Source: Alphaproteobacteria bacterium
GTDB taxonomy: Bacteria; Pseudomonadota; Alphaproteobacteria; UBA828
Assembly: GCA_965243375.1 (NCBI GenBank)
Contig: CBDEUT010000004.1
Coordinates: forward strand, 234,276-298,275
Length of the DNA: 64,000 nucleotides
Direction of reading: 5' to 3'
Shown: one piece after another, positions 3,649 to 34,374 of the stretch
Position numbering within the stretch: position 1 is the stretch's first letter
Layout of the letters: each line of letters begins with the position of its first letter
Notes under the pieces: model-generated
Databases searched by the model: none
What the model was told of the DNA's origin: nothing
The model's input: the letters and a program-made list of their open reading frames with translations, nothing else
Made by a program: the position numbers and the translations under genes

Positions 3649-3746
3649 CGGGGGTGCCTCCCTGATCCTCCATTGCCTCGCGCTTATCCGCGCGCTGGAA
3701 CTCCACATAGCAGAAGGGGCATGGCTGCGCCACTCGTAGGCGGGGC

Positions 3747-4015
3747 TAGCCCGCCCTTCTCACCAGGGTCACGGCCTGCGTCGCGCTCAGGCGTTCGATC
3801 CGCCAGGAGCGGGCCGAAAAGCGTATCAGGGAATACGGTTGAGGCCCGCGACGCCGCGGGCGGGCGCCTGGGCGCGACCCGAAGGGCGGCGCTCTCCGGC
3901 CGACAGCGTGCGTCACGGCGCTTCCCCGATGCACCACATCGCGGTGCGCGCCGTTCCTGCTCTGCCGGCCGGACAGCGCCGCGCAGACCATGACCCTGGT
4001 GAGAAGGGCGGGCTA
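3747..4015. mobile_element. MITE-like element or long palindrome with perfect 25-bp terminal inverted repeats
   Basis: TAGCCCGCCCTTCTCACCAGGGTCA at 3747-3771 and its exact reverse complement at 3991-4015. Imperfect complementarity continues about 15 bp inward. The interior has no convincing coding frame. The ychF TAG stop (4013-4015) lies inside the right repeat. Confidence 0.6.
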
Positions 4016-20274: not shown

Positions 20275-21471
20275 TCAGCCCGCCACGACGGCGGCCGGGT
20301 CACGGCCGACGATCCGGCGGTAGATGTCGGGGTCGGTCGCGCCCTCGCTGCCGATGACCAGGATCCGGGAGGCTTCGCCTAGGCCCAATGCCTCGCGCGC
20401 CTCCGCATCGTCTGCCGCAGCCATCAGCCCGCCGAGGGAGGCGGCACCGGACTCGCCCAGCACGAGCGGCGGGTCGCCGGCGGCGGGGGCAGCGGCACGG
20501 CGCATGGCATCGGTGGCACCCGCATCGTCCAGTGCCATGAAGGCGAAGGCGCCTCGCGCGAGCATCTGCCAGGCGAGCGGCGAGACCTCGGCGGCGGCGA
20601 GGCAGGCCATCACCGTGTCGAGATCGCCGGAGGCGGGGCTCGGTTTGCCGTTGACCGCGCTCTGGTAGAGGCAGTCGGCGGTCGTCGGCTCGACCACTAC
20701 GCCTTTCGGGCTCTTGTCGCCGCAATCCTGGCGGAAGGCGCCGATTACCGCGGCCGCGAGCCCGCCGACACCGGCCTGTACGAAGAGATGGGTCGGCACC
20801 GCGCCGCCTAGCGCCGCCCTGATCTCGTCCACCAGCATGGCGTAGCCGTGCATGACCCGGCTCGGTGCCTCGTCGCCGCCGGCGTGCGAAGTGTCCGAGA
20901 CCAGCAGCCAGCCCCTTGCATTCGCCTCGTCGGCGCAGGCCTCCACCGCCTCGTCATAACTGCCGGCGATGCGCACGATGTCGGCACCCTGGGCTGCGAT
21001 GGCGCGCTCGCGGCCCTGGCTCACCGGCCCCGGAAGAAACACCGTGCAGCGCGCGCCGGCGCGGCGGGCGCCCCAGGCCACCGCAAGCCCGTGGTTGCCG
21101 TCGGTCGCGCAGCACACCCTCACGTCGCTTGCGCGCTTGGCGGCCCGGCCTGCGGCGACCTCCGCGATGGAGACGTCGTCTCCCAGCCGCTCGCGCAGCA
21201 GGTGCACCACGGCATAGGCGCCGCCCAACGCCTTGAAGCTGCCGAGGCCGAAGCGCCCGCTCTCGTCCTTGAGCCAGAGCGTCTCGATGCCGAGCGTGGC
21301 GGCGAGCCGGTCCAATCGGTGCAGCGGGGTGGGCCGGTAGCCTTCGAAGCCCATGATCGCGGCGCGCGCCGCGGCGCGACGCTCCAGCAGGATCGCCTGC
21401 TCGGAACCGCCGGCGTCTCCCGTGGCGGACGCGTAACGTGGATTCACATGGAGCTGGAAGGGGACGGTCAT
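20275..21471 (-). CDS. diaminopropionate ammonia-lyase (fold-type II PLP enzyme)
   Basis: 398 aa. LWLKDESGRFGLGSFKALGG (PLP-Lys region), ATDGNHG, and C-terminal GSEGATDPDIY are typical of the DpaL/YgeX family. Confidence 0.75.
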   Translation of the reverse strand: MTVPFQLHVNPRYASATGDAGGSEQAILLERRAAARAAIMGFEGYRPTPLHRLDRLAATLGIETLWLKDESGRFGLGSFKALGGAYAVVHLLRERLGDDVSIAEVAAGRAAKRASDVRVCCATDGNHGLAVAWGARRAGARCTVFLPGPVSQGRERAIAAQGADIVRIAGSYDEAVEACADEANARGWLLVSDTSHAGGDEAPSRVMHGYAMLVDEIRAALGGAVPTHLFVQAGVGGLAAAVIGAFRQDCGDKSPKGVVVEPTTADCLYQSAVNGKPSPASGDLDTVMACLAAAEVSPLAWQMLARGAFAFMALDDAGATDAMRRAAAPAAGDPPLVLGESGAASLGGLMAAADDAEAREALGLGEASRILVIGSEGATDPDIYRRIVGRDPAAVVAG

Positions 21472-21485
21472 GGCGCAGCCCCGGC

Positions 21486-23474
21486 TCAGCGCAGGTCAGC
21501 GAGCAAGGGCATGACCTCGTCCGCGAAGCGCTCCAGCTGCGCCGCCTTCCCGCTCTCCGGCGCCAGCACGTTCAAGACGAGATGGCGCATGCCGGCCGTG
21601 TGGAACGCTCGAATCAATTCAGCGACTTCCGCCGCGTCCCCGAGTGCGCAGTAACGCTCCGCCGCACGGGAAAAATCCATGGCGTAGCGGACGCTCAGGA
21701 ACTTGGCGGCGAATTCGAGAGCGGTCTCGCGGTCCTCGTCGAGCCTCACGAACAGCAGGTGCGATGTGCCGAAGCGCTCCAGCGTGCGTCCCGCATCGGC
21801 CGCAGCGGCGGCGATGGTATCGAGCGAGCGGCGGTAGCGCTCGGGGTCCACGACGTAGGACATCCAGCCGTCCGCCAGTCGGCCGGCGCGCCGCAGCGCG
21901 GGGTCGGCGCGGCCGCCGCACCAGATCGGCGGGCCGCCCGGCTGTGCAGGCGGCGGCTGGATCGCGACCTCGGGGAAGGTGTAGAAGCGCCCGTCATGAG
22001 CGACCGGGCGGCCGGACCAGAGCTTGCGCAGGACGCGAATCCCCTCACTGAGCCTGGCGCCGCGTTCCTCCACCGGCACGCCGCAAAGCTCGAACTCGAG
22101 AGGGAACTCGCCGCCGACGCCGACCCCAAAAATCACCCGGCCGTTCGAGATCGTGTCGAGGGTCGCAACCTGCTTCGCCACGGGCGACGGGTGGCGGAGC
22201 GGCAGCAGATAGACCGCCGTGCCGACGGTAAGCCGGTCGCTCAGCGCAGCCGCCTGGGCGAGCTGCAAGAGCGGATCGAGGATCGGGCCCGCGAAGGCCA
22301 CGTGATCGCCGGACCAGATCGAATCGAAACCCCGTGCATCGAGCAGGCGCACGGTCTCGGGCAGGTCGCGGCCGGCGGCCGCCCCCTCTTCATCGTCGTA
22401 GCCCGTCGGCGCCAGCACATTCTGGTAGCCGATGCTCAATCTCGATTCGAGGGGCAGATCCACAACCGGCTCCCGCCTTGGAGAAAATGGCCGCGCACTG
22501 TAGCCCGCATGTCTCGATGCGGTCACGGCCCGCGTTGCGCCGATGAGATTTGCGCCGCGCCGCCCTGTGCGGCGGGTGCGGAGGGCCCATACGGGCTGTG
22601 CGATCCGGGCGGGATCGCCGGTGTCGAGAGAGGTGACGCGGCGCATTTCGCGCCGGTGCAGGGTGTCGTCGAACGGCCGCGCCCGGTGCATCGTGGCGCG
22701 GTTGTCCCAGATCACGAAATCCCCGCTCCGCCACGAATGCCGGTGCACGAACTGAGGCTGTGTCGCGTGCTCGATGAGGTCGCGCAGCAGCAGCCGGCCG
22801 TCGGGGACGGGCCGGTCGAGGATTCGCGAGGCGTGCGAGGCGAGGTAGAGAGAGCGCCGCCCGGTGCGCGGGTTCTCCAATATCAGAGGCTGAATGGCCC
22901 CCTTGAGCCGGTCGCTCTCTTCCTCGGAGAAATCGAAGCCCAGCGTGATGCGCGAGTACGCGATCGAATGGTGCACGCGGAGGCCTTCGAGGGTCGCCTT
23001 CGCCTCGTCCGTCAGGGCGTCGTAGGCCGCCCGCATGTCCGCGAACTCGGTGTCCGACGCGACCGGCGGAAGCACGAGGGCGGCGAGCATCGAGTAGCGG
23101 CCGCGCGGATCCTGAAACGACGCGTCGGTGTGCCACAGGCGGTTAGCGATACCGTACTGACGCTTGCGGTCCTCCGCTTCCAGAATCTCTCCGTCCGGGC
23201 CCACGTTCGAGACATCGGTGAGCGCTTCGTCGCCGAAGCGGCTCTTCTGCAGGATGCTGATGCCGGTCTTGCGGTGGAGCTCGCCGTCGAGCCGGGTGGC
23301 GAAGTCGCGCTGCTCCTCGCTCGAAAGCGCCTGGTCCCGAAACACGAGCACCGCGTGCTCGTCCATGCCGGCCCGTATCTGCTCCAGAGTCTCGTCATCG
23401 TGCACGTCGCGGAGATCGACCGGGCTCGCCTCGGCGACGAAGAGGGGGTGGAGCTTGCGGAACTGGAGCGTCAT
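21486..23474 (-). CDS. in-frame fusion ORF: TauD/TfdA-family Fe(II)/2-oxoglutarate dioxygenase (N) + luciferase-like (LLM, F420/flavin-type) oxidoreductase (C)
   Basis: One frame without a stop from the ATG at 23474 to the TGA at 21486. N-part has LWHTDASF (HxD) and WDNRATMHRA. C-part has DSIWSGDHV...GVGVGGEFPLEF...LNVL. An Arg-rich linker lies at about 22464-22600. An internal GTG at 22463 has GGGAG upstream. Confidence 0.7.
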   Translation of the reverse strand: MTLQFRKLHPLFVAEASPVDLRDVHDDETLEQIRAGMDEHAVLVFRDQALSSEEQRDFATRLDGELHRKTGISILQKSRFGDEALTDVSNVGPDGEILEAEDRKRQYGIANRLWHTDASFQDPRGRYSMLAALVLPPVASDTEFADMRAAYDALTDEAKATLEGLRVHHSIAYSRITLGFDFSEEESDRLKGAIQPLILENPRTGRRSLYLASHASRILDRPVPDGRLLLRDLIEHATQPQFVHRHSWRSGDFVIWDNRATMHRARPFDDTLHRREMRRVTSLDTGDPARIAQPVWALRTRRTGRRGANLIGATRAVTASRHAGYSARPFSPRREPVVDLPLESRLSIGYQNVLAPTGYDDEEGAAAGRDLPETVRLLDARGFDSIWSGDHVAFAGPILDPLLQLAQAAALSDRLTVGTAVYLLPLRHPSPVAKQVATLDTISNGRVIFGVGVGGEFPLEFELCGVPVEERGARLSEGIRVLRKLWSGRPVAHDGRFYTFPEVAIQPPPAQPGGPPIWCGGRADPALRRAGRLADGWMSYVVDPERYRRSLDTIAAAAADAGRTLERFGTSHLLFVRLDEDRETALEFAAKFLSVRYAMDFSRAAERYCALGDAAEVAELIRAFHTAGMRHLVLNVLAPESGKAAQLERFADEVMPLLADLR

Positions 23475-24394
23475 CGGGTCTCGCCCGTCTGTGGGCCCGT
23501 TTCGATGGGCAGGTCGGGATCGTACGCCCACTCGCCCATCGAGCCGTCGTAGAGGGTGAGGTCACGGTAGCCGAGCTGGTGCAGGAGGAACAGGCCGACG
23601 GTGGCGGAGATACCCCCGCCGCAATAGGCGACGACCTGGCGGTCCGGGGTGATTCGGGCTTCCTCGTGCAGCCGCCGCGCCTCGTCCAGCGGTACGAAGG
23701 CGCCGTTCGACGGATCGAGGAGGGTCGCCGCAGGCACGTTGACGCTGCCCGGGATCCGCCCCGGGCGTCCGTAGCGGCTCGGGCCCTCGCCCAGGTGAAA
23801 CGCGGGCGCGAGCGCATTCACCGCGGCGGTGCCGGCATCGCCGAGCCGGGACAGCACGTACTCGCTGTCCACGAACCGGCCGGGCTGGAGCGAGGCGGTA
23901 AAGCTTGCGGGCGGGTATTCGCCCGGTGTGGAAGAGACGGGGCGGCCCTCCGCCTTCCACTTCTCCCAGCCGCCATCGAGCACCGCCGCGCTCTCGAAGC
24001 CGAAGGCGCGCAGCATCCACCAGACCCGTGTCGCCCACATGATGCTGCCGGCTGAGTAGAGCACAACGCGGGAGCCGTCGCCGATTCCGAGCGCGCCCAT
24101 GGCCTCCGCGAACTGCTCTGCGGTGGGGGCCATGAACTTGAGGCGCGTGTCCGGGTCGGAAATCTGGCCCTGGATGTCGAGAAAGACGGCGCCGGGGATG
24201 TGCTCGGCGTCGTACTCGGCCCGGCCGGGGACGACTCGGTAAGGGGCATCGTCGCCGGGCTCCGCCGGCTGGAGCCATGTCGTGCAGTCCACGATGCGAA
24301 GCCCCGGCGCACCCAGGCTCGCCTCGAGCGCGCCGGTCTCGATCAGCGCCTGCGGCTCGCGCCAGTTCGCGAGATCGGCTCGGCCTTCGGTCAT
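23471..24394 (-). CDS. two-domain rhodanese-type sulfurtransferase
   Basis: ORF trimmed to MTEGRADL (ATG at 24394). HIPGAVFLD in domain 1 and the active-site loop YCGGGISAT in domain 2. ATGA overlap with the downstream gene. Confidence 0.8.
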   Translation of the reverse strand: MTEGRADLANWREPQALIETGALEASLGAPGLRIVDCTTWLQPAEPGDDAPYRVVPGRAEYDAEHIPGAVFLDIQGQISDPDTRLKFMAPTAEQFAEAMGALGIGDGSRVVLYSAGSIMWATRVWWMLRAFGFESAAVLDGGWEKWKAEGRPVSSTPGEYPPASFTASLQPGRFVDSEYVLSRLGDAGTAAVNALAPAFHLGEGPSRYGRPGRIPGSVNVPAATLLDPSNGAFVPLDEARRLHEEARITPDRQVVAYCGGGISATVGLFLLHQLGYRDLTLYDGSMGEWAYDPDLPIETGPQTGETR

Positions 24395-24462
24395 CGACGG
24401 TCTCTCCTGCGCTCCGACCGCAATCCTATCGGGGCGCGGCGGCGCGGTCACCGTTGGCCCGT

Positions 24463-25209
24463 TCAGTGGTCGCTGAGCAGCGAGCCGCAGCCATAGATGC
24501 GGTCGTCGAACCCGTTGGCCCGGTAGGCGTGCCAGGCGATCGCGGCGTTGATGGCGATCACCGGCTTGCCCAGCCAGCCTTCCGCCTCCGCCGCGAGCCG
24601 CACCATGGAGAGGTTGGTGCCCACCTGCACGATGGCGTCCACGTCCGGGCCGTCGAGCGCGCGCAGCACATCCCGAAGCCTCTCCGGAGTCACCGCCGCG
24701 ATGGCTGTCGCGCTCGGACACTGGAGGTCCACGTAGCGGGTCACCGGGAAGCCGGATTCCTCGAAGTAGCGGACGATCTGCTCGCGCATGATCGGCTGGT
24801 ACGGGGTGAGCACCGCGATGCGCCGGGCGCCGACGGCCTCCAGGGCGGCGCTGCACGCTTCCGCCCCGGTCGTCACGCCAATCCCGCACAGCCGCCGGGC
24901 CCGTTCGCGGAAGGTCGCGTTGCCCGCGCGGCCGCCCCAGAACGTGGGCGCCGACATCCCCATCACAAGGTAGTCGGGCTCGCAGGTCATGACGTCACGC
25001 ACCGCGGTCTCGAAGGCCCCGTCCACCTGCTCCAGAAGCGCCGCGAACGCATCGTTCGAGTCGAGAGCCGGGCTCTCGATGTAAATCCGCCCGGTGTGAA
25101 ACGTGACGCCGGGAATGCGGAAGAGGTGGTTGAAGTCGGCCTCCACGATCGTGTTGGTGGAGGGCACGATGACGGCAAGCTTGGCGCGGAAACCGGCGAC
25201 GTCGGGCAT
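24463..25209 (-). CDS. Asp/Glu/hydantoin racemase superfamily protein (maleate isomerase / arylmalonate decarboxylase / EutA-like)
   Basis: 248 aa. KLAVIVPSTNTIVEADF N-terminus, RIAVLTPY, and GKPVIAINAAIAWH are typical of this superfamily. Confidence 0.7.
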   Translation of the reverse strand: MPDVAGFRAKLAVIVPSTNTIVEADFNHLFRIPGVTFHTGRIYIESPALDSNDAFAALLEQVDGAFETAVRDVMTCEPDYLVMGMSAPTFWGGRAGNATFRERARRLCGIGVTTGAEACSAALEAVGARRIAVLTPYQPIMREQIVRYFEESGFPVTRYVDLQCPSATAIAAVTPERLRDVLRALDGPDVDAIVQVGTNLSMVRLAAEAEGWLGKPVIAINAAIAWHAYRANGFDDRIYGCGSLLSDH

Positions 25210-25218
25210 GGCAGCGGA

Positions 25219-26535
25219 TTACTGACCGTCCGGCGTCTCGGCGCTGAGGTCGGGATAAATCGGGAAGGCGCGGCAGAGAGTCCGCACCTCGGTGCGAATA
25301 GCCTGCTCGACCGCCTCGTCGCGCCCGCCCGCCGTTGCCATGGCGTGCAGCACGTCGGCGATCCAGCCCCCGATGCGGCGGAACTCGGCTTCGCCGAAGC
25401 CTCGGGTGGTCCCGGCCGCCGAGCCGAAACGCAAGCCCGAGGTCACGCGGGGCGGCTGCGTGTCGCCGGGCACCGCGTTCTTGTTGCAGGTGAGACCGGC
25501 GGCTTCCAGGCTGTCGGAGGCCGCGGCCCCGGTCAGCCCGAGCGGACGGAGATCGGCCACCAGCAGCGGCGTGTCCGTGCCGCCCGCGACGATGGCGATG
25601 TCCCGCTCCATCAGCGTATCGGCGAGGCAACGCGCATTGGCCAGGACCTGGGCCGCGTAAGCCTTGAACTCGGGCTTGAGCGCTTCGCCCAGGCAGACTG
25701 CCTTGGCCGCGACCGCGTTGAGGATCACGCTGCCCTGCACGCCGGGGAAGACCGCTCTGTCCAGCTTGCGCGCGAGCACCGCGTCGTCGGTGAGGATGAT
25801 GCCGCCGCGTGCGCCGCGCAGGTTCTTGTAGGTGGTCGCCGTGGTGACGTGGGCGTGGGGCAGGGGGCTCGGGTGCGCGCCGCCCGCCACGAGACCGGCG
25901 AAATGCGCCATATCGGCGAGCAGGGTGGCACCAACCGAATCGGCAACCCTCCGAAAGCCGGCGAAGTCGATTGCGCGCGGATAGGCCGAGCCGCCGCAGA
26001 TGATGAGCCTGGGCCGGTGCTCGTGCGCGAGGCGCTCGACCTCGCCCATGTCGATGAGGCCCGCGGCATCGGTGCCGTAACGGACCGGGTTGAACCACTT
26101 GCCGGTGAGGTTCGGCGCCGCGCCGTGGCTCAGGTGGCCGCCGGCATCCAGCGCCATGCTGAGCACCGTGTCGCCCGGCTGGAGCAGGGCGAGGAAGACC
26201 GCCTGGTTGGCCTGGCTGCCCGAATGAGGCTGGACGTTGGCGAAGGCGCATCCGAAGAGCTGCTTGGCCCGCTCGATGGCGAGGGCCTCGACCTTGTCGG
26301 CGAACGCGGCGCCGCCGTAGTAGCGGGCGCCGGGCCGGCCTTCGACGGTCTTGTTCGTAATGACGGAGCCGAGGGCCTCCAAGCTCGCCCGGCTGACCAG
26401 GTTCTCCGACGCGATCAGCTCGATCCCATCCTGCTGGCGCGCAAGCTCGCCCGCGAGGGCCGCGTGGACCTCCGGGTCGACTGTTTGCAGGTGATCGAGA
26501 AAGTAACCCGGCTCGCGCGCCGGGGTGTCGCTCAT
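25219..26535 (-). CDS. glyA: serine hydroxymethyltransferase paralog (divergent)
   Basis: ORF trimmed to [10 protein letters not shown] (ATG at 26535). [29 protein letters not shown], and PLP-Lys motif [16 protein letters not shown] (Tyr where canonical SHMT has His). Confidence 0.8.
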
Positions 26536-27320
26536 TGGGCGGCTGCCGGTTCGAGCAGGCAATCGTCGGCGAGCGGCACCACCGGCGAGAAGTCGGTGTG
26601 GTGCTTGAACTCGGGCCGGGCGAACGCGGTCTGGGCGTTGGCGACCGGGTTGAGGATCAGCGAGAAGATCGCGCGGTCCCACGGCGACATGTTGCCCGGC
26701 GAGCCGTGGACCATCAGGTCGCCGAAAATGAGGACCGTTCCGGGCGGGCCGAGCGCGGGCGTGATGCCGCCCACGGCGATGAGGTTCGTGACCGTCTCGC
26801 GATCCACCACCCAGAGCGGATAGCTCGTGCTCGTCACGTCGTGGAAGGTGGGCAGGGGCTCGTGCCGATGGGAGCCGGGGATGAAATAGAGCGGACCGTT
26901 GTAGTGGCTCACTTCGTCCAGCAGGATGTGCAGGTTGAGCGCCTGCGGCGCCGGCACGCCGTCGTCCCGGTGATGGGTGGCGAAGTCGTAGTGCCACTGC
27001 CAGACATCGCCCTCGAACGCCGCCTTCACGTTGACCTTGACCTGCTGGATATAAAGCTCGGGGCCCGCGATCTGCTGCGCCGGCACGACCAGGCGCGGGT
27101 GGCGCGCGAGGCGATCGAATAGCTCGCTCCGCTGGTGCAGACCCATCATGGTGCGGGGCATGGTGCCCGTCTTCTCGCCGATGTTGGCGTCGCTCTCCTC
27201 ATCGAAGAGCGGCGGCAGGGCGGCGCGGATCGTTGCCACCTCGGCGGGCGAAAAGACGCCGGGGAGGACTAGCAGGCCGTCCCGGCGGAAGGCCTCAAGC
27301 TGTTCGCCGTTCAGCTTCAA
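26532..27320 (-). CDS. phytanoyl-CoA dioxygenase (PhyH) family Fe(II)/2OG oxygenase (ectoine-hydroxylase-like)
   Basis: 262 aa, TTG start. [18 protein letters not shown] (HxD), and the distal His in [13 protein letters not shown] overlap with the SHMT paralog. Confidence 0.75.
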
Positions 27321-27375
27321 TGGACCGGCCTCGCCGGTTGCTCACCGCCCCGGTCGCGCGGGGCGCGGGGGGCGC

Positions 27376-27407
27376 GGGGGTCTCCCTCCAGCGGCAGGGA
27401 AACCCCC
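27376..27407 (-). terminator. GC-rich stem-loop downstream of the amidohydrolase gene (terminator-like or REP-like, no U-tract)
   Basis: On the minus strand: GGGGGTTTCCCT-GCCGCTGG-AGGGAGACCCCC, 27 nt after the stop at 27434. Confidence 0.3.
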
Positions 27408-27433
27408 AACCCCGCTTTGCGAATCGCGACGGC

Positions 27434-28732
27434 CTACTCGGCGGCGGCGGGCGTCTCGCCCCGCCGGCGCTTGGCCAGCGCGATCTCGTTCGGCGCGCGG
27501 TGGTAGGCGCCGTCCTTCATGATCATGAGCAGGTTGTCGTTATCCTGCATGATCGAGACGTCTTTGGTCGGGTCGCCATCCACCAGCAGCAGGTCGGCGA
27601 GGTATCCCTCCTTGACCATGCCCACGTTCATGCCCATCAGCTCGCCGGCCCACTTGGTGGCCCCGATCAGCGCCTCGGCCGGCGTGTAGCCGAACATGTT
27701 GACGAAATGCTCGAGGTCGCGGGCGTTGGTGCCGATGGGGTTCCAGGCGAAGCCGTAGTCGCCGCCCGGCATGGCGCGGATGCCGCGCTTGCGCACCTCC
27801 TTATAGGTGCGGACCGTGTGCTCCATCTTGTAGAAGAGGTTGTAGCTCTCCGCGACCTCGCGGGTCATTCCCCACTCGGCGGCTTCGTACGCGGTCGTGT
27901 AGACGATGCCCACCGCCGGTGCCATGTAGACTTCCTTCTTCTTGGCCTCCAGCATGTCGAGGGTCTTATTGGTGCAGTAGTCGGCGTGGTAGATGATGTC
28001 GATACCGTGCTTGAGTGCGAGCCGCACCGCCTTGTCGGCCCTGGCGTGGGTGATGATGTTGACGTCGGCCTCGCGCGCGACCTCGGCCGCAGCCGCCACC
28101 TCGGCATCGAAGTAGGTGATCTTCTCGGACTGCCCGGGGTGCGCGAACTCGTCGCCCGAGATGTTGATCTTCAGGTTGTCCACGCCTTCCCGCACGCACA
28201 TGCGGCAGGCCTTGCGTACCTCGTCCGGCCCGTCGGCAATGTAGCCCACCGACTCCTGGTGCATGTGCCACATGCGCTCGTCGCCGAGCCCGCCGGATGA
28301 CACGATCTCAGGCGACGCCGCCTTGATGCGGGGCCCCGGATAGCGCCCGGCGTTTATCACGTCGCGCAGCACCGGCTCGATGCGGAGCTTGTTGTAGCCG
28401 ACGCCGGCGGCCGAGAAGAGGCTCGTGAAGCCGGCGTCGAGCATCGTCCGCGCATTGTCGAGCGCGAGCACCATGTGCTCCTCGGGCTGGAGCCGCCCGA
28501 TCTCTGGCAAGCTCGCGCTGTCGATGTAGCAAACGTGGGAGTGGGGTTCGACCATGCCCGGCATCAGGGTGGCGCCGGCACCGTCCACCACGGTCGCGCC
28601 GTTGGCCCTGATCTTGCCCTTGCCGCGCGCGACCTTCTTGATGAGGTTGCCCTGCAGCTTCACCTCGCCCGCATAGGGGCGCTTGGCGTTGCCGTCGAAA
28701 ATCATCACGTTCTTGAAGAGCGTCTCTGCCAT
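27434..28732 (-). CDS. amidohydrolase family protein (metal-dependent, TIM-barrel)
   Basis: ORF trimmed to MAETLFKNVMIFDG (ATG at 28732, GGAGG upstream). PGMVEPHSHV HxH motif and the C-terminal GYLADLLLVDGDP pattern. Confidence 0.8.
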   Translation of the reverse strand: MAETLFKNVMIFDGNAKRPYAGEVKLQGNLIKKVARGKGKIRANGATVVDGAGATLMPGMVEPHSHVCYIDSASLPEIGRLQPEEHMVLALDNARTMLDAGFTSLFSAAGVGYNKLRIEPVLRDVINAGRYPGPRIKAASPEIVSSGGLGDERMWHMHQESVGYIADGPDEVRKACRMCVREGVDNLKINISGDEFAHPGQSEKITYFDAEVAAAAEVAREADVNIITHARADKAVRLALKHGIDIIYHADYCTNKTLDMLEAKKKEVYMAPAVGIVYTTAYEAAEWGMTREVAESYNLFYKMEHTVRTYKEVRKRGIRAMPGGDYGFAWNPIGTNARDLEHFVNMFGYTPAEALIGATKWAGELMGMNVGMVKEGYLADLLLVDGDPTKDVSIMQDNDNLLMIMKDGAYHRAPNEIALAKRRRGETPAAAE

Positions 28733-28964
28733 CGTCTCAGCCTCCGCCTCTGGCATGCGCGGCCGCAGTCCCACGGGCCCATGCCGCAGGGTTCGATTCG
28801 TAGCGCCGCTCGGGGCGGCGCACGCCGCTGCGTATACCTTAGGCGTCAGTACCAGCGCCCGCAATCGCTAACCCGCGCCGGCAGCCTATGACCGGGAGCA
28901 CTGGCGGCGCTGTACATCGGCACGGCCGCGGTCTATGACGCGCGCGCCAGCAGGGAGGACACCC

Positions 28965-29552
28965 ATGAAGCTCTATTCGAGCTCCGCGACGCCGTTCGGC
29001 CGCAAGGCGGCGATCGTCGCGCAGGAGCACGGCATCGCGCCCGACATCGTGAACGTGAACCCCTTCGAGTCGGAGGAGCTCGAGCGGCTCAATCCGGCCA
29101 AGCTCATTCCGGTGCTGGTGATGGACGACGGCACCGTGCTCTACGACAGCCACGCGATCTGCGCCTATTTCGACGAGATCGGCTCGGGGCCGACGATCTA
29201 TCCCGACGACGACCGCTGGGGCTGGCAGCGCCGCCTGACCCTCGGCACCGCGCTCACGGAGACGAGCGTCCAGTGGATCTTCCAGAAGCGCCAGCCGGCG
29301 GACCAGCAGAGCGTCAATCTCAAGACCCACTTCGAGAAGCGGGTGAGGCGCATCGCCAAGGCGCTCGACGGCGATGTGGACGCTTACGCCGCCGCACCTT
29401 TCCGTATCGATCATATCGCCATCGTCTGCGGTCTCGGCCACCTGGAGTTCCGCCACGACGACACGTGGCGGGCGGACTGCCCCGCGCTCACGGCGTGGTA
29501 CGAGGACATCCAGAGCCGGCCGAGCGTCGCCGCGACACAGCCCACGGACTGA
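28965..29552 (+). CDS. glutathione S-transferase family protein
   Basis: ORF trimmed to MKLYSS (ATG at 28965, GGGAGG upstream). The N-terminal thioredoxin-like region has LIPVLVMDDGTVLYDSHAICAYF. Confidence 0.75.
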   Translation: MKLYSSSATPFGRKAAIVAQEHGIAPDIVNVNPFESEELERLNPAKLIPVLVMDDGTVLYDSHAICAYFDEIGSGPTIYPDDDRWGWQRRLTLGTALTETSVQWIFQKRQPADQQSVNLKTHFEKRVRRIAKALDGDVDAYAAAPFRIDHIAIVCGLGHLEFRHDDTWRADCPALTAWYEDIQSRPSVAATQPTD

Positions 29553-29573
29553 CGCCGGGAGGAAGAAAGCGCC

Positions 29574-30296
29574 ATGATCGACCTGCACTACTGGCCGACG
29601 CCCAACGGCAAGAAGGTGACCATCCTGCTGGAGGAATGCGGGATGCCCTATCGCCTTATCCCCTGCCACATCGGGAAGGGCGATCAGTTCGAGGAGTCGT
29701 TCCTTAGGATCAGCCCCAACAACCGCATGCCGGCGCTGGTGGACGACGACCCGCCCGGCGGCGGCGCGCCGGTTAGCGTCTTCGAATCGGGCGCGATGAT
29801 GATGTACATCGCCGAGAAGGCCGGTCGCTTCTACCCGCAGGACCTGCACGGCCGCTACGAGGTCAACCAGTGGATCATGTGGCAGATGGCGAACCAGGGC
29901 CCGAAGTTCGGCGAATTCGGCCACTTTCGCCGGCTGGGCGACGACGAGGGCGACCAGACCTACGCCATCACGCGCTTCGGCAACGAGGTCAACCGGCTCT
30001 ACGGTGTCATGAACAACCGGCTCTACGACCGGCCCTATCTCGCGGGCGAGGAGTACACCATCGCCGACATGGTCTCCTATCCCTGGGCCGTCTACTGGGA
30101 ATCTCAGGGGCAGGACATCAACGATTTCAAATACTTCAAGCGCTGGTTTGAAGTGCTTTCAGAGCGTAACGGTGTGAAGCGCGGCATGGCGGCGGGCGAA
30201 GACCTGCCGGAAGACCCCGATACCCTCTCCGACGAGGAGAAGGCGCGGCGCCGCGCTCTGCTCTACAACCAGCGGGCAAGGCCGGCGCCGGGTTGA
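29574..30296 (+). CDS. glutathione S-transferase, Nu-class (YfcG/YghU-like)
   Basis: MIDLHYWPTPNGKKVTILLEE...ISPNNRMPALVD...VFESGAMMMYIAEK is the YfcG-type pattern. Confidence 0.8.
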   Translation: MIDLHYWPTPNGKKVTILLEECGMPYRLIPCHIGKGDQFEESFLRISPNNRMPALVDDDPPGGGAPVSVFESGAMMMYIAEKAGRFYPQDLHGRYEVNQWIMWQMANQGPKFGEFGHFRRLGDDEGDQTYAITRFGNEVNRLYGVMNNRLYDRPYLAGEEYTIADMVSYPWAVYWESQGQDINDFKYFKRWFEVLSERNGVKRGMAAGEDLPEDPDTLSDEEKARRRALLYNQRARPAPG

Positions 30297-30421: not shown

Positions 30422-31453
30422 TCAGTCGACTGGCTTCCAGTCCCCTGCGGGTTTGAGCTTCTTGGCTTCGGGGATCACCTCGGCGCCGAAGCGCTCGATC
30501 TGGTCGAGCTGCTCGGAGAGCGCGCCCGAGGGGCAGTCCAGCATGCAGACCGCCATCGAGAAGCCGGCATCGGCGAACGCCGCGAGGTCTTCGAGTATCT
30601 GCTCGGCTGTGCCGGTGCAGGTGAGGCGCGGACTGGCCTGCGAGGCCGGGGCGCCGGCATCGGTAATGCGCGCGGTGGCGGCGCAGAGCATCAGGAAGTC
30701 GGAGGGGCTCCGGCCTTGCGCCTCAAGCTCGCGGCGCACCTCGTCCTGGAGGGGGGCGAAGCGCCCGGCCTCCACGTGGGAGTCGAGGAAGAGCGGATAG
30801 AGGCCGTTGCAGAAGCGCGCGGCACGCCTCGCGCCCCGGATCGTGTTGCCGCCGAAGACGATCGGCGGGTGCGGGCTCTGCTGCACCGGTTTCGGGTCCT
30901 GGGAGACGTCCTTGAAGCTGTAGTAGTTGCCCTCGAACGTGGCGAGGTCGCCGGTCCAGGAGGCCTTGTAGATCTGGATGCACTCCTCGGTGCGCCGGTT
31001 GCGCTCCTCGTAGTCGATGCCGACAGCGTCGAACTCCTCGACCATCCAGCCGACGCCGACGCCGAGCATGAGCCGGCCGCCCGAGAGCCGGTCCACGGTC
31101 ATGAACTGACGCGCGTCCGAGAGGGGATGGCGGTAGGGCGCGATCAGCACGCTGGTGGCGAGCTTGAGGGTCGTGGTCTGCACCGCGACGGCGCCCATGA
31201 CGACGGCTGCGTCCAGCATGTTGTGGCGGCGCTGGTAGGCGCGCTGGCCGGAGACGTTGGCGGTGTGGAAGCTCTCGGAAGCGTAAGGTATGCAGACGTG
31301 GTCGGGATACCAGATCGAGTGGATGCCCGCGCGCTCGGCGGTCTGGGCAACCCGGATCGGGTCCATCTGCTCCACCGGCGTGTGGTGGAGGAACATGTTG
31401 ACGTCGTCACGGTAGGACTGTCCGTGGGTGTTTCCGTAAAGCCCGACTTCCAT
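30422..31453 (-). CDS. LLM-class flavin/F420-dependent oxidoreductase
   Basis: 343 aa. HSIWYPDHV, RLMLGVGVGWMVEEF, and PPIVFGGN motifs of luciferase-like monooxygenases. Confidence 0.8.
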   Translation of the reverse strand: MEVGLYGNTHGQSYRDDVNMFLHHTPVEQMDPIRVAQTAERAGIHSIWYPDHVCIPYASESFHTANVSGQRAYQRRHNMLDAAVVMGAVAVQTTTLKLATSVLIAPYRHPLSDARQFMTVDRLSGGRLMLGVGVGWMVEEFDAVGIDYEERNRRTEECIQIYKASWTGDLATFEGNYYSFKDVSQDPKPVQQSPHPPIVFGGNTIRGARRAARFCNGLYPLFLDSHVEAGRFAPLQDEVRRELEAQGRSPSDFLMLCAATARITDAGAPASQASPRLTCTGTAEQILEDLAAFADAGFSMAVCMLDCPSGALSEQLDQIERFGAEVIPEAKKLKPAGDWKPVD

Positions 31454-31607: not shown

Positions 31608-33068
31608 ATGCGGGTCTTCATTGCCTGTCTCGGAACCGAGACAAACACCTTCTCGTCGTTGCCGACGGGCGAGCAGACCTATCGGGACACGGCCGTCTTC
31701 GACGACGATGCGACGCGCCATGCGCCCAACCCCTTCAGCCTGCCGCTGCACATCTGGCGCGAGCGCGCCGAGGCGGAAGGGCGCGAGGTGATCGAGGGTC
31801 TCTGCGCCTTCGCCCAGCCGGCGGGGCGGACGATCCGCCGGGTCTACGAGGGCTATCGCGACCGCATCCTTGCGCAGGCCAAGGCCGCGCTGCCGCTCGA
31901 CCTCGTGCTGGTGAACATGCATGGCGCGATGGTGGCGGAGGGCTACGACGACTGCGAGGGCGACCTGCTGGCCCGGCTGCGCGAGGTCGTTGGCCCCGAC
32001 GCGGTGATCGGCGGCGAGCTCGACCTGCACTGCCACATCACGCCGCTGATGCTGGAGGCGGCCACGGCGCTGCTCACCTACAAGGAGTATCCCCACATCG
32101 ACATCGGCGAGCGGGCGGGGGACCTGTTCAGGCTCTGCCACGACGCGGCTCTCGGGCGCACCGCGCCGGTGATGGCCGCCCACGACTGCCGCATGATCAG
32201 CATGTGGCGCACCACGGACGAGCCGATGCGGACCTTCGTCAACCGCATGAAGGTGCGCGAGGGGAGCGGCGGAATCCTCGCCGTTTCCTTCGGCCACGGC
32301 TTCCCCTGGGGCGACGTGGCCGAGGTAGGGGCCAAGACGCTGGTGGTGGCCGATGGCGACGAGGGCAAGGCGGCGGCGCTGGCCGCCGATCTCGGCGCCC
32401 GGCTCTGGGCGATGCGGGAGGAGACGCGGCCGACGTCAATCGGGATCGACGACGCCATCGACCGGGCATTGGCGGTCGACGGCGGGCCGGTCGTGCTGGC
32501 AGACGTCTCGGACAATGCCGGCGGCGGCGCGCCGAGCGATTCCACATTCATCCTGGAGCGCCTGATCGCGCGCGGCGTCGGCGATGCGGCGAGCGGTCTC
32601 TACTGGGACCCGGTGGCCGTGCGCTTCTGCATGGAAGCTGGGGAGGGGGCCTCGCTCCGGCTCCGCATCGGCGGCAAGTGCGGCCCGGATTCGGGCGACC
32701 CGGTGGACCTCGCGGTCACGGTCGAGCGCATCGTCACCGGTGCCGCGCAGACCTTCGGCGCGGCCCGCAACAGGATCGGCGATGCCGTTAGGGTGCGCGC
32801 GGAAGGCGGCCTGGACCTCGTGCTCAACACGGTGCGCACGCAGGTCTTCCATCCCGACGCGTTCGCCGCCGTCGGCCTCGATCCGGTGGGCAAGAAGATC
32901 GTGGTGGTGAAGTCCACCCAGCACTTCCACGCCGGCTTCGCCCCGATCGCGAAGGAGATTCTCTACGTCGCGGCGCCCGGCGCCATCGCGCCCGACTTCG
33001 CGGCGATCCCCTACACCAAGCTGGCGAAGCCATATTGGCCCAGGGTCGAAGACCCGTGGGCAGCGTGA
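31608..33068 (+). CDS. M81-family metallopeptidase (MlrC-like)
   Basis: 486 aa. MRVFIACLGTETNTFS N-terminus and the HGAMVAEGYDDCEGDLL pattern are typical of the MlrC family. Confidence 0.8.
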   Translation: MRVFIACLGTETNTFSSLPTGEQTYRDTAVFDDDATRHAPNPFSLPLHIWRERAEAEGREVIEGLCAFAQPAGRTIRRVYEGYRDRILAQAKAALPLDLVLVNMHGAMVAEGYDDCEGDLLARLREVVGPDAVIGGELDLHCHITPLMLEAATALLTYKEYPHIDIGERAGDLFRLCHDAALGRTAPVMAAHDCRMISMWRTTDEPMRTFVNRMKVREGSGGILAVSFGHGFPWGDVAEVGAKTLVVADGDEGKAAALAADLGARLWAMREETRPTSIGIDDAIDRALAVDGGPVVLADVSDNAGGGAPSDSTFILERLIARGVGDAASGLYWDPVAVRFCMEAGEGASLRLRIGGKCGPDSGDPVDLAVTVERIVTGAAQTFGAARNRIGDAVRVRAEGGLDLVLNTVRTQVFHPDAFAAVGLDPVGKKIVVVKSTQHFHAGFAPIAKEILYVAAPGAIAPDFAAIPYTKLAKPYWPRVEDPWAA

Positions 33069-33084
33069 GAGCGGGAGAGACGAC

Positions 33085-34374
33085 ATGGCGATGGACTTGA
33101 TCGTGCGCGGCGCCAATCTGCCCGATGGACGGATCGGCGTGGACATCGGCGTGCAGGATGGGCGCATCGTCGCCGTGGAGCCCGCGCTGCAGGCCGAGGC
33201 CGGGCAGGAGATCGACGCGACGGACCGGCTGGTCACGCCGCCCTTCGTCGATGCCCATTTCCACATGGATGCGACGCTGACGCGCGGCCTGCCGCGCACC
33301 AACCGCTCAGGCACCCTCTTCGAGGGCATTCAGCTATGGGGCGAGCTGAAGCCGCTCTTGACGTCCGAGGCGGTTGCCGAGCGGGCGATGACCTATTGCG
33401 ACATGGCGATCGCGCAGGGAATCCAGGCGATTCGCAGCCATGTCGACGTCTGCGACGAGAGGTTGATCGGGGTCGAGGCGCTGCTGGAGGTCAAGCGCCG
33501 GGTCGCGCCGTACATCGATCTGCAGCTCATCGCCTTCCCGCAACAGGGCTACTACCGCTATCCCAACGCGCAGGAACTGTTCAAGCGGGCGCTCGACATG
33601 GGTGTCGAGGTGATCGGCGGCATTCCGCACTTCGAGCGCACGATGGCGGATGGCGCCGCGTCGGTGACCGAGCTTCTGGAGATCGCGGCGGAGCGCGGGC
33701 TGCTGGTCGACATGCACTGCGACGAGACCGACGACCCGATGTCGCGGCACGTCGAGATGCTCGCCAGGGAGACCCTGCGCCTCAACCTGCAGGGGCGGGT
33801 GGCGGCATCGCACCTGACCTCCATGCACGTCATGGACAACTACTACGTCAGCAAGCTGATCCCGCTGATCGCCGAGTCGGAGATCGACGTGATCCCCAAT
33901 CCCCTGACCAACATCGCGGTGTGGGGGGACAACGACGGCAGCTATCCCAAGTGGCGCGGCATCACCCGCGTGCCGGAGCTGAACGCGGCCGGCATCACCA
34001 TAGCCTTCGGCCAGGATTGCGTGATGGACCCGTGGTACGCCTACGGCAGTGCCGACATGCTGGAGGTCGCGCACATGGGCTCGCACGTGACGGCCATGTT
34101 CGGGGAGAACGAGGTGCGGGCCTGCTTCGACGCGATCACCGTGAACCCCGCGAAGATCATGCACCTCGAGGGCTACGGGCTGGAGCCCGGCTGTTATGCC
34201 GACATGGTCGTGCTCCAGGCTGCGGACCCGTTGGAAGCGATCAGGCTGCGGGCGACGCGGCTCGCGGTGATCCGCCGCGGCGAGGTGGTCGCACGCACCC
34301 CGGTGGCCGTGACGGAGCTCTCCGTGCCGGGGCGGCCCAACAGCGTGGCGCTGACCTACAAGCCGCAAGGCTAA
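33085..34374 (+). CDS. cytosine-deaminase-like amidohydrolase
   Basis: 429 aa. LVTPPFVDAHFHMD HxH motif, DMHCDETDD, and SHLTSM are typical of CodA-related amidohydrolases. Confidence 0.75.
   Translation: MAMDLIVRGANLPDGRIGVDIGVQDGRIVAVEPALQAEAGQEIDATDRLVTPPFVDAHFHMDATLTRGLPRTNRSGTLFEGIQLWGELKPLLTSEAVAERAMTYCDMAIAQGIQAIRSHVDVCDERLIGVEALLEVKRRVAPYIDLQLIAFPQQGYYRYPNAQELFKRALDMGVEVIGGIPHFERTMADGAASVTELLEIAAERGLLVDMHCDETDDPMSRHVEMLARETLRLNLQGRVAASHLTSMHVMDNYYVSKLIPLIAESEIDVIPNPLTNIAVWGDNDGSYPKWRGITRVPELNAAGITIAFGQDCVMDPWYAYGSADMLEVAHMGSHVTAMFGENEVRACFDAITVNPAKIMHLEGYGLEPGCYADMVVLQAADPLEAIRLRATRLAVIRRGEVVARTPVAVTELSVPGRPNSVALTYKPQG

Follow-up and report, generated by a model that had tools for sequence, protein, structure and literature searches.

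Whether a tightly packed string of co-directional genes encodes one pathway or enzymes brought together from separate sources is the question raised by seven minus-strand genes of an alphaproteobacterial genome (here G000). They occupy positions 20275-28732 of the window, the 64,000-nucleotide stretch analysed here (G000:C4:234276-298275; ~70% G+C), and encode, in the order of transcription, an amidohydrolase, a PhyH-family Fe(II)/2-oxoglutarate (2OG) hydroxylase, a paralog of serine hydroxymethyltransferase (SHMT), a protein of the Asp/Glu-racemase fold, a rhodanese, a TfdA-like 2OG dioxygenase whose frame now runs into a luciferase-like oxidoreductase (LLM), and a diaminopropionate (DAP) ammonia-lyase (DAPAL). 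A first-pass annotation of this DNA had read the string as one catabolic pathway. From a comparison of loci across the genus, we propose that it is probably a mosaic of three or four separately inherited modules and not a dedicated seven-step pathway.

Genes were called from a listing of open reading frames (ORFs) and Pfam and NCBIfam scans of the window proteins, and junctions were read from the sequence. All seven genes are intact and co-directional, and the junctions described in the first pass are correct: ATGA overlaps join PhyH to SHMT (26532-26535) and the rhodanese to the dioxygenase (23471-23474), the two narrow gaps measure 9 nt (25210-25218) and 14 nt (21472-21485), and no regulator or transporter lies within the string. 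Three further gaps separate the amidohydrolase from PhyH (113 nt), the racemase-like gene from the rhodanese (68 nt) and the TfdA-like gene from the LLM (123 nt, now read through). The rhodanese does not begin right after the racemase-like gene; its start is the ATG at 24394, with GGAGAG ahead of it. No sigma-70-like promoter was seen inside the string and terminator-like sites were not above shuffled controls; judging from the sequence, we infer that the seven genes are probably co-transcribed in this species.

Modular behaviour of the gene string across the genus

The 13.9-kb region was compared at the DNA level with the genomes of 20 congeneric species and the window proteins were mapped onto the loci. 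This neighbourhood survey, of the kind that the first-pass annotation had proposed, does not find the string conserved as a unit: the seven genes are colinear in only three of the 21 congeneric genomes (G000, G012 and G005, at ~90% DNA identity), and the modules are separate elsewhere and in sister genera. In ten congeners (G001-G004, G011, G013, G014 and G018-G020) amidohydrolase-PhyH-SHMT is followed directly by LLM-DAPAL-sdhE-mfd, with rhodanese-TfdA at a distant locus, and fragments of G007 agree with this arrangement (amidohydrolase-PhyH-SHMT-LLM-DAPAL). A block consisting of two glutathione S-transferase (GST) genes and amidohydrolase-PhyH-SHMT stands apart from LLM-DAPAL-sdhE-mfd in G006, G008, G010 and G017, while G015 and G016 have amidohydrolase-LLM-DAPAL-sdhE-mfd without PhyH-SHMT. 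Among sister-genus genomes, G042 has amidohydrolase (87% identity), LLM (75%) and DAPAL (67%) in a row, and G041 has LLM-DAPAL only. Throughout the genus and in two sister genera, DAPAL is the gene immediately downstream of the LLM. The amidohydrolase, the most conserved gene of the string with its 87% identity in the sister genus, adjoins LLM-DAPAL in G015, G016 and G042 and PhyH-SHMT in other congeners; two GSTs accompany the amidohydrolase-PhyH-SHMT block in most of them.

The remaining genes behave as a further group. In congeners, the racemase-like gene is found solely beside the rhodanese/TfdA-like pair and in two different gene orders: it lies upstream of the pair in G000, G012, G005 and G007, separates the two members in G014, G001 and G009, and is missing from the other genomes. 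Where the rhodanese-TfdA pair stands alone, its surroundings vary by species and include a zinc-dependent alcohol dehydrogenase, a GMC oxidoreductase, a short-chain dehydrogenase/reductase (SDR), binding proteins and a multicopper oxidase. Among the loci compared, this pairing is seen in this genus only: TfdA-like homologues of 69-71% identity outside the genus have no adjacent rhodanese and do not keep their neighbours. Likewise, amidohydrolase homologues of ≤66% identity outside the lineage have none of these neighbours, and no other gene of the string lies near the LLM orthologues of other families (55-58% identity).

Each ATGA overlap lies within a stable pair, and the 113-nt and 123-nt spacers fall at module borders. 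A first module would consist of the lineage-specific amidohydrolase, the F420-type LLM and DAPAL, upstream of sdhE-mfd, and a second of the translationally coupled PhyH-SHMT pair, lying between amidohydrolase and LLM in most of the genus. The third, comprising the Cys-less Amdase-fold protein and the overlapping rhodanese/TfdA-like pair, is at the SHMT-LLM junction only in G000, G012 and G005, where it would have joined at a soft junction in one shallow species group. A later TAG-to-TGG change would then have removed the stop of the TfdA-like gene, so that its frame now crosses the spacer and continues into the LLM. Taken as a whole, the string amounts to ordinary operon shuffling, and it illustrates how a tidy-looking operon can mislead pathway inference, with overlaps marking true functional pairs and spacers marking recent joins.

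The SHMT-LLM junction is evidently labile and tolerates insertions, since G004 carries an inserted ~270-nt dispersed repeat there. The borders of the inserted module show no flanking direct or inverted repeats or insertion sequence remnants, and the TfdA-LLM spacer of G000 is not itself a dispersed repeat. The ~270-nt element, a copy of which lies exactly in the SHMT-LLM spacer of G004, has inverted ends and resembles a miniature inverted-repeat transposable element; G000 has seven copies of it, one of them at window positions 3746-4014 (G000:C4:238021-238289).

The PhyH-SHMT pair

The PhyH-SHMT pair is the sole part of the string that recurs across phyla. Of the 80 best PhyH loci in collections with one genome per species, 11 have an adjoining SHMT of at least 56% identity. 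Eight of the 11 come from organisms outside the genus (Alpha- and Gammaproteobacteria, Nitrospiraceae and Bryobacterales). In two others, both from metagenome-assembled genomes (MAGs) of Actinomycetes (L085:3429-4610 and L086:8786-9937), a very divergent, 32%-identical SHMT-family gene (Pfam SHMT, 137-153 bits) is directly upstream of PhyH and, by its sequence, represents another lineage of SHMT taken on as the partner of PhyH, bringing the count to 13 of 80 loci. The functional tie between oxygenase and SHMT that the first-pass annotation had suspected is supported by adjacency in several phyla and by an altered pocket common to the linked SHMTs. The neighbourhoods of the pair in other phyla (USP, RidA, NUDIX/DUF4743, MatE, EamA, LysR and GST) revealed no consistent third partner and no substrate clue; a GST2-like gene flanks the pair in a Kiloniellaceae MAG. 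Literature searches for ectoine hydroxylase or PhyH together with SHMT turned up no pathway already described.

The PhyH protein belongs to a very conserved family of ~260 amino acids (aa), with 62-75% identity across phyla and an EctD-like motif, and its TTG start lies where its orthologues have their Met. In the orthologue alignment, H110, D112 and H205, which bind the metal, are invariant, as is R216, and the predicted model (pLDDT 83.7) has the double-stranded β-helix of the PhyH fold with the HxD...H triad and the 2OG Arg all in place. The likeness to ectoine hydroxylase noticed in the first pass holds in a fold comparison, where the nearest solved relatives are the leucine 5-hydroxylase GriE (Z 30.7), the trans-3/4-proline hydroxylase H11 (Z 29.8) and EctD (Z 27). 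With these three enzymes the window protein shares the fold (Z 27-31, 33-36% identity), the metal ligands and the EctD-like motif, the signature of EctD itself being FxWHSDFETWHxEDG(M/L)P. It differs from EctD in forming a distinct family, in falling below the cut-off of the EctD model (TIGR02408, 139.7 bits against 336.5) and in having no ect genes nearby. GriE, H11 and EctD all act on free amino acids or ectoine, and the modelled structure suggests that the window PhyH is most likely a hydroxylase of a free amino acid from an EctD/GriE-like sister family. The published work on PHYHD1 / 2'-O-methyl-nucleoside demethylase bears on another branch of the PhyH family and was set aside.

Two further PhyH paralogs are encoded in G000 (C9:1470892-1471692 and C8:283013-283801), 50% and 41% identical to that of the window. 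PhyH orthologues of 45-51% identity at 13 loci (L081, L082, L088, L089, L091-L093, L095, L096, L098, L102, L104 and L109), from Beta- and Alphaproteobacteria and one Acidimicrobiia MAG, are followed within ~10 nt by a gene for a DRL/SAF-domain NAD(P) oxidoreductase and not by an SHMT. A GntR(FCD) regulator is upstream of the DRL/SAF-linked PhyH in L082, L096 and L104, as in Pseudomonas and Reyranella soli loci.

The SHMT paralog scores 536.6 bits against NF000586, above its cut-off of 335, retains the lysine that binds pyridoxal 5'-phosphate (PLP), and is ~61-62% identical to the housekeeping GlyA of G000 (C2:344667-345923). Its pocket motifs are altered and read NKTVEG, GGHLSHG, TTYK, RGARGG, QGS and AVCLGEA. 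All 12 linked SHMTs examined have NKTVEG (NTTVEG in one) in place of canonical NKYAEG, GGHLSHG for GGHLTHG, TTYK for TTHK, QG(S/T) for QGGP and AVC(L/F)GEA (ATCLGEA in one) for AVALGEA, and 11 of them have RG(A/V/G)RGG for RGPRGG, whereas the canonical motifs are kept in two unlinked GlyA proteins, the housekeeping enzyme of G000 and that of locus L055. The mSHMT of Pseudomonas hunanensis Teo1, whose gene we fetched from a plasmid for the degradation of tris(hydroxymethyl)aminomethane (TRIS), has all the pocket changes of the linked SHMTs except for a Thr at position 228. From these motifs, the SHMT pocket is predicted to resemble that of α-methylserine-type SHMT (EC 2.1.2.7). Retro-aldol cleavage of a β-hydroxy amino acid by this enzyme, as first suggested, is possible; given this resemblance, it is no less likely that the enzyme takes a hydroxymethyl group off a quaternary amino acid.

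We envisage that the oxygenase would hydroxylate a non-standard amino acid at an unactivated carbon, and that the PLP enzyme would then remove the Cα hydroxymethyl or hydroxyalkyl group thus formed, to tetrahydrofolate or by a retro-aldol reaction, so that a simpler amino acid remains; the substrate itself may be freed from an amide by the amidohydrolase. That the pair constitutes an undescribed two-step route is credible. A fuller version can be offered only tentatively, namely that the 2OG oxygenase acts on a non-proteinogenic amino acid, for instance an α-methyl compound like 2-aminoisobutyrate or α-methylserine, and hydroxylates one of its methyl or methylene groups, that the methylserine-type SHMT passes the hydroxymethyl group to tetrahydrofolate, and that the pair is wired between a substrate-freeing amidohydrolase and a DAP/D-serine-type ammonia-lyase that finishes the product. 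The analysis narrows the effort to one widespread uncharacterised pair, an EctD/GriE-like hydroxylase with a methylserine-type SHMT; its characterisation would name thousands of proteins mislabelled ectoine hydroxylase and GlyA and could reveal how environmental bacteria use unusual amino acids.

Known systems and alternative explanations

A parallel for the two-step route is TRIS degradation, which combines mSHMT with D-serine dehydratase. Cluster II on plasmid p1_Teo1 of P. hunanensis Teo1 encodes these two enzymes with FolD and PurU (PMC10848231). The window SHMT paralog has the same pocket substitutions (NKTVEG, GGHLSHG, RGARGG, QGS and AVCLGEA), and in both systems the SHMT is followed by a fold-type II PLP ammonia-lyase, the order in most congeners being SHMT, LLM and then DAPAL. 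However, the TRIS cluster makes its hydroxymethyl amino acid with alcohol and aldehyde dehydrogenases in place of a 2OG oxygenase and has linked FolD and PurU genes, which the window string lacks, and the window lyase is of the DAP ammonia-lyase type and stands without an SHMT in some congeners.

Some points weigh against the mosaic reading and the methylserine-type assignment that goes with it. In G000, G012 and G005 the seven genes stay closely spaced and no promoter or terminator is recognisable between them, and for this reason a shared regulon or a real metabolic link could still hold in these species. By analogy with the TRIS cluster, where mSHMT is followed by D-serine dehydratase, the placement of PhyH-SHMT between amidohydrolase and LLM-DAPAL could reflect function and not a permissive site. 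PhyH-SHMT may have been either inserted or lost, as the deep nodes of the rooted LLM+DAPAL tree are weak. As for the pocket, position 228 is Tyr in the linked SHMTs against Thr in the TRIS mSHMT, and the linked SHMTs are 53-59% identical to the TRIS mSHMT, no higher than to GlyA (55-63%).

An alternative for the pair follows the logic of eukaryotic carnitine synthesis, in which the second and third steps are carried out by trimethyllysine hydroxylase and a hydroxytrimethyllysine aldolase/SHMT. Here, PhyH would β-hydroxylate an L-amino acid of an ordinary type and the SHMT would cleave the product, independently of folate, to glycine and an aldehyde. The succession of a 2OG hydroxylase and an SHMT-type cleavage is common to both; however, the carnitine hydroxylase has the TauD/BBOX fold in contrast to the PhyH of the window, and neither a betaine-aldehyde dehydrogenase nor a second such hydroxylase is present here. 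It is in keeping with this chemistry that GriE, H11 and EctD hydroxylate side-chain carbons of free amino acids, that SHMT is well established to cleave β-hydroxy amino acids, that the divergent, transaldolase-like SHMT lineage also pairs with PhyH, and that aldehyde or alcohol dehydrogenase genes occur near the pair in some loci. An aldehyde-handling gene is nevertheless not consistently linked to PhyH-SHMT, the linked SHMTs keep folate-side residues (the Glu of the VEG motif and the CNKN motif), and their Y55T, GGHLSHG, RGARGG, QGS and AVCLGEA are common to α-methylserine-type SHMT, which leaves this explanation doubtful.

The claim of a single pathway, in which all seven enzymes would degrade a cyclic or β-substituted amino-acid-derived compound and the G000 type would be its complete form, fares worse and we consider it improbable. 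Its case rests on the co-directional genes with tight or overlapping junctions, internal promoter- and terminator-like sites that do not exceed chance, the arrangement kept at ~90% DNA identity in three species, and the recurrence of sulfur and thiol genes around the modules (the two GSTs, the rhodanese and, at the G042 and Kiloniellaceae loci, a Cys_Met_Meta_PP gene). The arrangement is, however, missing from 18 of the 21 congeners, and each module is found alone in some. In locus trees, the three carriers fall into one shallow group together with G008, which has a split arrangement, and their nearest relatives, G008 and G001, are both arranged otherwise. Even among the carriers, the SHMT of G012, the closest seven-gene relative (L020:11495-12813), changes frame around residue 220-226, a short way ahead of the PLP-lysine motif, reflecting a pseudogene or an assembly error. 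The racemase-like protein is without catalytic cysteines, and no transporter or regulator is attached.

The 2-aminoisobutyrate cluster of Rhodococcus wratislaviensis encodes the AibH1H2 hydroxylase, dehydrogenases and the SHMT-like AibC, an SHMT homologue that lacks hydroxymethyltransferase activity and is a decarboxylase acting after two oxidations (PMC7782822). The resemblance, by description, is that this cluster pairs an SHMT-family PLP enzyme with a hydroxylase acting on a methyl group in a quaternary amino acid, but its hydroxylase is a diiron three-component monooxygenase and the dehydrogenases are absent from the window string. That the SHMT paralog would be an AibC-like decarboxylase of an aminomalonate-type intermediate, formed by further oxidation of the hydroxylated product, is very improbable: AibC is indeed an SHMT homologue in a hydroxylase-containing cluster (PMC7782822) and the PhyH orthologues of 45-50% identity are consistently followed by dehydrogenases (the DRL/SAF oxidoreductase in 13 loci, plus SDRs), but no dehydrogenase is in the window string or consistently beside PhyH-SHMT pairs, and the SHMT signature matches that of the TRIS mSHMT.

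Read-through of the TfdA-like dioxygenase into the LLM

The first-pass annotation had described the sixth gene as a fusion of TauD and LLM. The TauD fold stands, but the identity as a taurine dioxygenase does not: the best PDB match is the 2,4-dichlorophenoxyacetate dioxygenase (PDB identifier 5bke; 248 bits over the full length) against 97 bits for taurine dioxygenase, and the TauD model NF007104 is scored at 135.6, below its cut-off of 313. The protein is TfdA-like and has the HxD...H ligands of TfdA, the 2,4-dichlorophenoxyacetate/2OG dioxygenase, and differs from that system in that a rhodanese gene overlaps its own.

Nor is the fusion a designed one, as a stop codon has been read through. 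The dioxygenase gene ends in ...CCC GTA TAG in G012 and G005, the sole other genomes in which the TfdA-like and LLM genes are adjacent, and reads ...CCC GTA TGG in G000 (22587-22589). The 123-nt spacer is open in frame and still has GGGAG, 6 nt ahead of the GTG at which the LLM starts, and its LLM-proximal part (~45-75 nt) is common to the spacer upstream of the LLM in G004 and G008. Of the dioxygenase homologues, the 120 closest among the matches listed are all single-domain proteins, 114 of them of exactly 295 aa, and a search of 5.8 billion proteins in the range of 364-1159 aa found no two-domain protein combining TfdA/TauD with LLM. Thus, the apparent linker is a former intergenic spacer, given the TAG of the relatives, the single-domain homologues and the ribosome site and GTG that the LLM retains. 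The TGG of G000 may be a sequencing error. Documenting the read-through matters, as this frame would otherwise be annotated as a new bifunctional enzyme.

The LLM scores 187.8 bits against TIGR03619, above its cut-off of 166.9, and G000 encodes F420 biosynthesis with cofD and a cofH-containing fbiC-like gene, both above cut-offs. These lie at G000:C4:208843-209754 and G000:C7:785852-788101, the cofH match being within an 889-aa frame that is a possible fbiC-type fusion. A second F420-type LLM of the TIGR03619 type is beside the GST genes on the minus strand (window 30422-31453).

Other enzymes and features of the locus

The echo of EutA/EutB of hydroxyectoine catabolism, which had been read from the co-occurrence of an Asp/Glu-racemase-fold protein and a fold-type II PLP enzyme in one string, does not survive the comparison. 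The two genes sit in different modules, the racemase-like gene going with rhodanese-TfdA and the lyase with the LLM, and they fail the EutA and EutB models. With the EutA model the racemase-fold protein reaches 73.6 (cut-off 318), and with that of arylmalonate decarboxylase (AMDase) 63.8 (cut-off 225). It lacks both catalytic cysteines, having Met and Gly in place of Cys76 and Cys194 of maleate isomerase and Gly in place of AMDase Cys188. The assignment of the lyase as a DAP ammonia-lyase is sound (NF006058, 438.3 against 276; TIGR01747, 303 against 274); its score of 322 with TIGR03528 is below the cut-off of 532, and SFKALGG, with the PLP lysine, and TDGNHG are present in its translation. 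Directly downstream are sdhE and mfd.

The rhodanese has two rhodanese stretches and the active-site loop CGGGIS, and scores 166.7 against a cut-off of 250 for the 3-mercaptopyruvate sulfurtransferase model NF008557. A metagenome protein (P0245, 600 aa, from a European Nucleotide Archive contig of 7871 bp) is a fused rhodanese::TfdA-like ORF, the TfdA-like part of which is 88% identical to that of the window, consistent with the ATGA overlap being one frameshift from fusion. The amidohydrolase belongs to the imidazolonepropionase/prolidase-like branch, its best NCBIfam match being a Caulobacter-type Xaa-Pro dipeptidase (190 bits, below the cut-off of 500). The coordinates of the genes, spacers and neighbours are collected in Table 1.

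Table 1. Genes, spacers and neighbouring features of the string, in window coordinates
Feature	Position	Strand	Basis
Amidohydrolase, 432 aa	27434-28732	minus	Pfam Amidohydro_1
Spacer at module border, 113 nt, with 12-bp G+C-rich hairpin	27321-27433	minus	
PhyH-family Fe(II)/2OG hydroxylase, 262 aa	26532-27320	minus	Pfam/NCBIfam, fold match
SHMT paralog, 438 aa, altered pocket	25219-26535	minus	Pfam/NCBIfam, motifs
Amdase/maleate-isomerase/EutA-fold (Asp_Glu_race) protein, 248 aa	24463-25209	minus	Pfam/NCBIfam
Two-domain rhodanese, 3-mercaptopyruvate-sulfurtransferase-like, 307 aa	23471-24394	minus	Pfam/NCBIfam
TfdA-like Fe(II)/2OG dioxygenase, 295 codons, then TGG codon	22587-23474	minus	
Former intergenic spacer, 123 nt, in-frame 'linker'	22464-22586	minus	
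Luciferase-like oxidoreductase (LLM), F420-dependent TIGR03619 family, 325 aa, GTG start	21486-22463	minus	
TauD-fold + LLM as one 662-codon frame	21486-23474	minus	
Diaminopropionate ammonia-lyase (DAPAL), 398 aa, fold-type II PLP enzyme	20275-21471	minus	NF006058 equivalog
Two GST genes, divergently transcribed, upstream context	28935-30296	plus	

No Rfam family was matched at E ≤ 0.1. The spacer between amidohydrolase and PhyH folds with -68.9 kcal/mol (z -2.55), has no T-run and was not called a terminator; at the same spacer G004 apparently has another G+C-rich inverted repeat, as judged by eye. Beyond the GST genes, the plus strand of the window (31608-34374) encodes an MlrC-like M81 peptidase (358 bits, far below the microcystinase cut-off) followed by an amidohydrolase of the cytosine-deaminase subfamily (737 bits). 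A reading of the neighbouring Amidohydro_3 gene as a D-aminoacylase was rejected in favour of this cytosine-deaminase-type assignment. In congeners, the M81 gene shares synteny with the GST/amidohydrolase block.

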